Positions 43,130 through 43,630 of a stretch of 43,630 nt of DNA are shown one piece after another (within the stretch, counting starts at the first letter, position 1; the number at the start of each line of letters is the position of its first letter). The notes beneath the pieces were generated by a model. That model saw only the letters and a program-made list of their open reading frames with translations. It had not been told where the DNA came from and made no database searches. The stretch is from Shigella phage Buco. The stretch is taken from sequence record MK562503. One strand, written 5' to 3'. A program made the translations under genes and the position numbers.

Positions 43130-43151
43130 TCCCGGGTTAGTCCCGGGTTAA
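43130..43151 (+). repeat. Tandem tcccgggtta motif shared with the terminal repeat
   Basis: tcccgggttag (43130..43140) and tcccgggttaa (43141..43151); the same tcccgggtt occurs at 10..18 and 43513..43521 inside the terminal repeats. Confidence 0.6.
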
Positions 43152-43166
43152 GTAGGGTGATACATA

Positions 43167-43496
43167 ATGAATGAACCTATTACACTAGAGAGTTTAAATG
43201 AATATAGCCCGGGTGATGCCGTGGTGTATGTACTGAGACTGGAAAACGCTAAGTGGTATGCAGGGTATACTGAGAACGCTCAGCATAGACTCACTAACCA
43301 TTTCCATAATGATGGCAGTGCCTGGACTAAGTTACATAAGCCAGTGGCTATACACAGTATAACCCGGGCTAGTAAGGCGCTAGAGAGTACTATAACGCTA
43401 GACCTGATGCGGGAGCATGGCTGGGAGAACGTCAGGGGCGGTGCGTGGACTGGTACTAAACTGGCTAAGGCACCAGCAGCACTGCGTAAGCGCTGA
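43167..43496 (+). CDS. GIY-YIG domain nuclease (109 aa)
   Basis: VVYVLRLENAKWYAGYTENAQHRLTNHF followed by E and N residues matches the GIY-YIG catalytic module; agggtga upstream; last gene before the right repeat. Confidence 0.65.
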   Translation: MNEPITLESLNEYSPGDAVVYVLRLENAKWYAGYTENAQHRLTNHFHNDGSAWTKLHKPVAIHSITRASKALESTITLDLMREHGWENVRGGAWTGTKLAKAPAALRKR

Positions 43497-43503
43497 AGGT
43501 TAG

Positions 43504-43630
43504 CCCGGGATATCCCGGGTTGACTTATCTGTTTTCGATTAAACACTAAGAAATAATCTCTTGTAGAATAGCTACTTAGAACCACTTGATAAAATACTTG
43601 AAAAATAAGTTTGCAATCCCTGTAGTGGGA
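43504..43630. repeat. Direct terminal repeat, right copy (truncated by window end)
   Basis: Identical to 1..127. Confidence 0.85.

Follow-up and report, generated by a model that had tools for sequence, protein, structure and literature searches.

The 43,630-nucleotide (nt) record of Shigella phage Buco (MK562503.1, formerly HRP29), analysed here over its full length and referred to as the window, carries near its right end a small open reading frame (ORF) for a GIY-YIG nuclease, bracketed by copies of a CCCGGG-containing motif. We give a probability of roughly 0.7 to the reading that this gene is an accessory early cassette, a horizontally acquired single-domain GIY-YIG gene lodged in a non-coding leader and playing no part in the formation of the genome ends. 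The main value of the analysis lies in a correction: the Buco record, and the same 43,630-nt contig held in IMG/VR, appear to carry a 127-nt assembler overlap which has been read as a terminal repeat. The real ends are predicted to lie about 1.1 kb away, which would make the nuclease gene the first rather than the last, and the apparent link between nuclease and genome end disappears. The gene itself is real but ordinary and is already annotated in the Buco record as 'GIY-YIG endonuclease', with which the ORF is 100% identical.

Positions 1-127 of the window are duplicated exactly at 43504-43630, and a preliminary description of this DNA had taken the duplication for a terminal repeat. It is most likely an assembly overlap, because its length is exactly that of the SPAdes k-mer (k=127) and because the termini conserved in this group of phages are found at 42389. 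SPAdes is known to leave artificial 127-bp overlaps on circular contigs (PMC5923482). The duplicated segment is AT-rich and promoter-like whereas the repeats of relatives are GC-rich, and in searches of phage records it matched no relative's repeat.

Buco is a KP34/phiKMV-like podophage; its terminase shares 84% identity with the enzyme of Cronobacter phage Peggy and 76-82% with the enzymes of phiKDA1 and KP34-like Slopekvirinae. A blastn search with positions 41900-42800 retrieves the annotated terminal repeats of KP34-like phages, and in local alignments position 1 of Peggy, KpV48, phiKDA1, fHe-Kpn01 and KP34 (CCTCACCCT...) falls on window position 42389. The annotated direct terminal repeats (DTRs) cover 1-271 in Peggy, 1-192 in KpV48 and 1-267 in phiKDA1; the ends of fHe-Kpn01 have been mapped by restriction analysis, by ligation plus Sanger sequencing and by PhageTerm (PMC7291057). 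The bases lying 5' of the relatives' right repeats align to 42331-42388, and within this stretch the block 42347-42388 corresponds to the sequence preceding the right DTR in KpV48, phiKDA1 and fHe-Kpn01, and in Peggy to the bases that close the record. The CCTCACCCTCAGCGCC motif occurs once in the window at zero mismatches. In four relatives a (C/G)TTrCCTnTTTTG motif follows the end of the repeat at a distance of 1-3 nt. As position 1 of the relatives lies at 42389 and the post-repeat motif at 42720, the true repeat is predicted between the two (Table 1); it is GC-rich, as in the relatives, and its right boundary, set by the conserved post-DTR motif, is accurate to within a few nt. The metagenomic sister contig L008 is collinear from terminase through tailspike, terminus motif and nuclease gene to the early genes, and runs continuously across the 127-nt segment. 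We infer that the Buco assembly was circularised and that the record opens at an arbitrary position.

In a genome with its termini placed by homology, the nuclease ORF would lie about 780 nt from the left end of the virion DNA, as the first supported ORF of the early leader. Some 450 nt would separate it from the true left terminal repeat, which lies to its left, and it is thus predicted to be the first ORF to enter the cell. The preliminary description of the gene as the last one holds in record coordinates only. The same description had also considered that the nuclease and its flanking motifs serve in concatemer processing. The conserved junction (42388|42389) lies about 780 nt upstream of the gene and lacks the motif, the gene is absent from relatives which share the terminal sequence, and the allele of the sister contig is catalytically dead. 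Such a role is effectively excluded.

The identification of the gene has held up well: ORF 43167-43496 is present near the right end of the record as described, and profile and fold searches with its product return only GIY-YIG domains. As a single sequence the Buco protein barely passes the Pfam cutoff for PF01541 (23.1 bits against 22.6); the same model is matched by 9/9 family sequences, with a best E-value of 9.9e-9. When the protein is aligned with eight homologues, Y21, Y31, G33, R41 and E73 are invariant, whilst H45 and N88 are shared by Buco and nearly all aligned members. A family profile finds the UPF0213 structures 1zg2 (E 3.5e-10) and 1ywl (E 5e-8), followed by weak matches to SLX1, T4 EndoII and I-TevI. 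The AlphaFold2 model is confident (predicted local distance difference test score, pLDDT, 89.3), and Foldseek comparison with viral models gives template modelling (TM) scores of 0.7-0.8 to giant-virus 'GIY-YIG nuclease' proteins and to one Vibrio phage protein. The ORF thus encodes a GIY-YIG domain with a complete catalytic set, and its product is a predicted nuclease.

With 12,409 clusters at 50% identity (E<=1e-3) this is a very large family, common in giant viruses and scattered among phages. It is represented at 439 IMG/VR loci, none of which has Buco-like neighbouring genes. Members from large viruses are mostly 160-280 amino acids (aa) long with C-terminal CCHC zinc knuckles, and the Buco protein is the bare catalytic domain: at 109 aa it is a single domain with nothing past residue ~100, PF01541 is the only Pfam match, and a separate DNA-binding domain is absent. 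No family match for it was found in PHROGs or PADLOC, NCBIfam returned a sub-threshold UvrC match only, and a literature search for YhbQ plus GIY-YIG found nothing. As a separate observation, many of the best-scoring family members in the metagenome library carry two to four tandem GIY-YIG domains per polypeptide, which is unusual for a nuclease domain.

The gene is distributed sporadically. Detectable homologues occur in four distinct phages among 50,697 records, and of roughly 2,700 related podophages almost none has the gene. Comparison of the right ends of related phages, which the preliminary description had proposed, found that the nearest relatives with the same terminal sequence lack it; in Peggy and phiKDA1 the tailspike gene, and then the repeat, closes the genome. 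In L008 the gene carries an in-frame deletion of 123 nt, equivalent to window positions 43332-43454, which removes residues 56-96 including the catalytic glutamate E73 and the asparagine N88; judged by these losses, the allele is catalytically dead. Over the 55 codons which L008 retains, the ratio of non-synonymous to synonymous divergence (dN/dS) between Buco and L008 is 0.10 (12 synonymous and 6 non-synonymous changes; dS 0.46). Because of this low ratio, the protein appears to have been under purifying selection until recently.

A second case comes from Pectobacterium phage Peat1 (Corkvirinae), whose homologue gp59 directly follows the terminus-like sequence and precedes the conserved early promoter. 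Here about 380 nt of PP90 and Phoria give way to a 1.12-kb segment with gp58, gp59, a promoter and a terminator-like hairpin, between flanks that are 94-98% identical. Since the Buco gene and the Peat1 indel share the same locus, the leader at the leading end of phiKMV-like genomes has taken up GIY-YIG cassettes at least twice. A clean indel is seen for the Peat1 homologue only; the Buco comparisons consist of the L008 deletion allele and of gene-less relatives which cannot be aligned. Within the Peat1 segment, gp58 and gp59 are each preceded by a direct repeat of ~35 nt (CTCTwTAGTATGCGGTGAwTTAwTGAGACA, at 2310-2350 and 2945-2985), which contains a TATAGT -10-like box, and each cassette gene seems to own a copy of promoter and 5' untranslated region (UTR).

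The palindrome which follows the nuclease gene is adequately explained by a predicted terminator. Its stem begins 1 nt past the TGA stop codon and is followed by a T-run, so that a GC-rich stem-loop with a U-tract lies 3' of the stop codon, as expected structurally of a Rho-independent terminator. The RNA folds with a minimum free energy of -23.7 kcal/mol (z -4.27), and 0/200 shuffles were as stable. The element is conserved in L008. A near-identical doublet, ACCCGGGATA x2, forms CCCGGG-ATAA-CCCGGG at 788-803 of Peggy, which has no nuclease gene; it lacks a T-run, and stands ~100 nt upstream of a shared TTGATAAAATAYTTGAAAA (TTGATAAAATA) element, from which the palindrome of the window is separated by 67 nt in the same direction. 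Because this doublet occupies the corresponding place in gene-less Peggy, the palindrome appears to be a backbone feature of the small Buco/L008/Peggy lineage. It was not found in KP34, KpV48, phiKDA1, fHe-Kpn01, PP16, PP90 or Peat1, nor at the other 79 family loci. The preliminary description had the palindrome open the terminal repeat, a view which falls with the repeat itself: the latter is a likely assembler overlap, and the palindrome is a terminator-shaped part of the backbone. A third hairpin of like style (CCGGGGTTATCCCGG) is seen at 42273-42291, about 45 nt past the tailspike stop codon and before the predicted right repeat. It is probably the terminator of the late operon, and suggests that CCSGG-type stems are the usual hairpin style of Buco.

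The motifs around the gene were correctly observed. The tandem pair just 5' of the gene is present as a TCCCGGGTTAG doublet at 43130-43150, and the same 9-mer, TCCCGGGTT, recurs within the palindrome at 43513-43521. This 9-mer has four sites in the window (10, 43130, 43141 and 43513) against 0.16 expected, the site at position 10 being the duplicated copy of that at 43513. Between 43100 and 43538 (439 nt) there are six CCCGGG sites where 0.24 are expected (P ~2e-7), and the only two closely spaced CCCGGG pairs in the genome lie one on either side of the ORF. When repeats are counted elsewhere in the genome, as the preliminary description had suggested, a divided answer is obtained: TCCCGGGTT is confined to this region, but short doublets are generally common in the leader. 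In the terminal and leader region 9-13-nt doublets number 4.3 per kb (6 in 1.4 kb), compared with 0.4 per kb elsewhere (17 in 42 kb), and the leader of Peggy is full of them too. The tandem pair by itself is not special, because such doublets are about ten times denser in the leader and are abundant in a phage which lacks the gene. The hairpin of the upstream pair alone is not significantly stable (z -1.45). L008 has lost one loop T from this pair, so that the exact direct repeat is broken and the stem retained. A role for CCCGGG doublets as family-wide companions of the nuclease was rejected, none being found at the other 79 IMG/VR loci or in Peat1.

Two further observations concern these repeats. 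Over the whole genome CCCGGG has 32 sites against 12.0±3.3 expected from dinucleotide shuffles, and an excess of about twofold persists outside the leader, the opposite of restriction-site avoidance. Tandem repeats of 9-13 nt in 2-6 copies pack window positions 42231-42720 and positions 1-900 of Peggy at about ten times the density of the coding genome; GTGGCTCTGG x6.3 at 42600-42663 is an example. These arrays are reminiscent of the short repeat arrays beside the terminal repeats of T7.

In the favoured reading of an accessory early cassette, host RNA polymerase would transcribe the nuclease gene along with the leader soon after injection, and the CCCGGG-ATAT-CCCGGG hairpin with its U-tract would stop or insulate the transcript. 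The upstream CCCGGG doublet would be one of the many 10-12-nt doublets of the leader, forming a small 5' stem-loop. The predicted enzyme, whose nearest kin are stand-alone UPF0213/SLX1-type domains, would nick or cut DNA with low sequence specificity or with structure specificity; its likely targets would be host or competitor DNA, or the gene may simply propagate itself. The gene would behave as a dispensable moron-like or selfish cassette. The preliminary description had also offered a selfish nuclease inserted with repeat scars, and part of this survives: presence is sporadic, the gene is decaying in a sister lineage, and the Peat1 homologue forms a clean indel at the same locus. The remainder does not, as the gene is not at the genome end, the protein has no DNA-binding domain, the doublet exists in gene-less Peggy and a terminator explains the palindrome. 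Seen thus, the Buco gene would be one more sporadic GIY-YIG cassette, unsurprising in itself but useful background for phage genome annotation and engineering.

A number of observations sit uneasily with the accessory cassette. Two of the CCCGGG sites that make up the local excess lie inside the ORF, so that hairpins alone leave this excess unexplained, and TAGCCCGGG is present three times within 300 nt. The ORF is bracketed by two doublets where Peggy has one. A dN/dS of 0.10 indicates that the protein mattered, and fits an adaptive role as well as a selfish one. A promoter scan found no promoter with a good -10 hexamer for the nuclease gene, and its expression is assumed. The predicted physical ends are placed by homology and by a k-mer coincidence. 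Finally, no alignable 'empty site' is found in a close relative, and the boundaries of the Buco cassette are not definable because flank searches gave nothing: blastn found no match to 42700-43630 in the 50,697 phage records or to 42720-43630 in E. coli genomes, exact-pattern scans of IMG/VR for both flanks returned only the window itself, and a JGI metagenome scan for the conserved upstream block returned no matches.

These points bear on the rival explanations to different degrees. Were the record correct as it stands, with a physical 127-nt repeat, the gene last and the nuclease acting on TCCCGGGTT sites in end formation, it would be understood why the duplication is exact and starts precisely at the palindrome, and why TCCCGGGTT is found only in this region. 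This has next to no probability, given that 127 nt is the SPAdes k-mer overlap, that the group's conserved terminal motif falls at 42389 and its post-repeat motif at 42720, that the segment is AT-rich and promoter-like where the relatives' repeats are GC-rich, that relatives sharing the end sequence do not have the gene and L008 has a dead allele, and that these phages own a terminase. An early nuclease maintained for the benefit of the phage, acting in host takeover or phage competition much as T4 EndoII does, is a more serious proposal, if still an unlikely one. The position as first ORF behind the predicted left end, the purifying selection and the Peat1 homologue at the same leading-end locus all speak for it; it has to contend with the absence of the gene from nearly all of the related podophages, its inactivation in L008, the lack in Buco of any obvious means to protect its own DNA, and the lack of a PADLOC or PHROG match hinting at function.

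The remaining rivals turn on the doublets. A homing-type endonuclease targeting CCCGGG-N4-5-CCCGGG, as sequence or as cruciform, would have the flanking doublets as its duplicated or split target. Its appeal is that two similar palindromic doublets, the only close CCCGGG pairs in the genome, bracket the gene where gene-less Peggy has a single one at the corresponding place; moreover the gene is sporadic and decaying, as in the life cycle of homing genes, and the structure-specific SLX1 is among the nearest solved relatives. We nevertheless regard it as improbable. The 109-aa protein has one domain and none for DNA binding, whilst larger family members carry CCHC knuckles; homing by double-strand-break repair makes no target duplications; a gene with two CCCGGG sites in its own ORF would cut itself; CCCGGG motifs are absent from the Peat1 cassette, and 0/79 other family loci have such a doublet. 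Recombination between the flanking TCCCGGGTT copies would equally give the Peggy state. A narrower version, in which the bare SLX1/UPF0213-like domain would use an extruded CCCGGG-N4-5-CCCGGG cruciform or hairpin as an insertion target, in a structure-guided form of homing, has only a slim chance of being right; if true it would explain the two palindrome copies around the gene against the single copy in Peggy. The doublets may alternatively be operators, paired 6-bp palindromes one helical turn apart which control leader transcription independently of the nuclease. Their spacings of 11 and 10 bp would suit this, as would their placement, one between a -35-like hexamer and the ORF, the other directly 5' of an AT-rich promoter-like region, and the occurrence of the Peggy doublet with neither gene nor T-run. 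This too is very unlikely, as no candidate regulator has been identified, the motifs are confined to the Buco, L008 and Peggy lineage, and a terminator fully accounts for the downstream copy. It is the bracketing by two doublets against one that keeps alive, at low probability, the readings of target duplication or structure-guided homing, of a deletion between TCCCGGGTT repeats in the Peggy lineage, and of operators.

The large ORFs of the window all lie on the + strand, in the order DNA polymerase, RNA polymerase, structural genes, terminase (37014-38891), lysis genes and tailspike (40704-42230). Positions 42790-43166, 5' of the nuclease gene, are 96.3% identical to L008 while the adjacent coding sequence has a dS of 0.46, and the fold z-score is -2.05. 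The stretch has no Rfam match, no E. coli match and no ORF kept in L008, and the comparison points to an element under strong constraint, be it a structured RNA or a sequence with a role in regulation or entry. Rfam searches of 42200-43630 and 1-1000 and a tRNA scan gave no matches, and a group I intron context was rejected on the Rfam result. The 'right-end promoter' of the preliminary description did not withstand scrutiny: the TTGACA at 43104 lacks a usable -10 hexamer at a spacing of 16-18 nt and went unreported in the promoter scan, so that it was rejected as a sigma70 promoter and looks like a partial copy of the promoter at 535. Elsewhere in the leader, L008 and Peggy lack a non-coding stretch of ~180 nt (329-511), which shares ~84% identity with leader DNA of Klebsiella phage Hope and E. 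coli phage phiHAO78-1. A match to the left leader of T7-like Kayfunavirus and Salmonella phages (~nt 500-570) covers its first ~70 nt as well. This leader element, patchy in its distribution, has no Rfam match and a fold z-score of -0.77.

Table 1. Features of the Buco window in and around the predicted terminus, leader and nuclease gene
Feature	Position	Strand	Remarks
TTGATAAAATACTTGAAAA leader element	83..101, also 43586-43604	+	conserved in Peggy and L008
Conserved early sigma70-like promoter, TTGACA-N17-CAGACT	535..566	+	Peggy orthologue TTGACA-N17-TAGATT
Conserved block just 5' of predicted terminus (junction side of right repeat)	42347..42388	+	100% identical to L008
Predicted true direct terminal repeat, single collapsed copy	~42389..42717	.	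~329 nt, 68% GC; left boundary firm
GTTGCCTCTTTTGC, post-DTR motif	42720..42733	+	alignment with Peggy, KpV48, phiKDA1 and fHe-Kpn01
Strongly constrained non-coding leader 5' of nuclease gene	42790..43100	+	L008 comparison
Partial copy GTGTTGACACGAAGTG of the 535-566 promoter	43101..43117	+	-35-like TTGACA, no acceptable -10
TCCCGGGTTAG x1.9 tandem doublet	43130..43150	+	can form 6-bp all-GC hairpin CCCGGG-TTAGT-CCCGGG (43131-43147); presumed 5' UTR
Shine-Dalgarno-like AGGGTG, 7 nt 5' of ATG	43154..43159	+	read from sequence; AGAGTA (degraded) in L008
Single-domain GIY-YIG nuclease ORF, 109 aa	43167..43496	+	Y21, Y31, R41, H45, E73 and N88 present
Intrinsic-terminator-like element	43497..43536	+	13-pair stem 43497-43526 (core CCCGGG-ATAT-CCCGGG), then ATCTGTTTTC
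127-nt copy of window 1-127	43504..43630	.	most likely assembler (k=127) circular overlap, not a physical terminal repeat

A number of parallels can be drawn with known systems. The terminal repeats and concatemer junction of T7/KP34-type phages are represented in the window by the conserved junction of the group (…TCACGAGAGGCAGTC|CCTCACCCTCAGCGCC…) and by the post-repeat motif; these elements lie at 42389-42733, away from the ends of the record, whose 127-nt 'repeat' shares nothing with them. Amongst proteins, the best sequence-profile match is to stand-alone proteins of the UPF0213 type (BH0048, 1zg2; EF2693, 1ywl) and the SLX1/URI domain, which have the same single GIY-YIG domain of ~100 aa and the same Y...Y...R...H...E...N pattern as the Buco protein. 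The viral family differs from UPF0213 and SLX1 in having its own C-terminal signature, GWENVRGG; the Buco gene resides in a phage leader and not, like UPF0213 genes, in a bacterial chromosome, and unlike SLX1 its product has neither an SLX4-type partner nor a RING domain. The closest family overall is that of the giant-virus GIY-YIG proteins with CCHC knuckles (Klosneuvirus, Yasminevirus, Marseillevirus and others; TM 0.7-0.8, 30-46% identity), and many of the IMG/VR family loci come from giant-virus metagenome-assembled genome (GVMAG) sources. Those proteins are mostly 160-280 aa long with zinc knuckles or tandem domains, in contrast to the bare domain of Buco. With the homing endonucleases I-TevI and T4 Seg the Buco gene shares an intergenic site, a patchy presence among close relatives and a degenerating allele; its product has no linker or C-terminal DNA-binding domain and there is no intron by Rfam match, and the gene is at most a candidate for homing. 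Phage 'morons' are self-contained accessory transcription units between backbone genes. The Buco cassette resembles them in being a single ORF with its own predicted terminator, at a non-coding site in the backbone and absent from close relatives, albeit with no convincing promoter of its own and in a virulent phage outside any context of lysogenic conversion.
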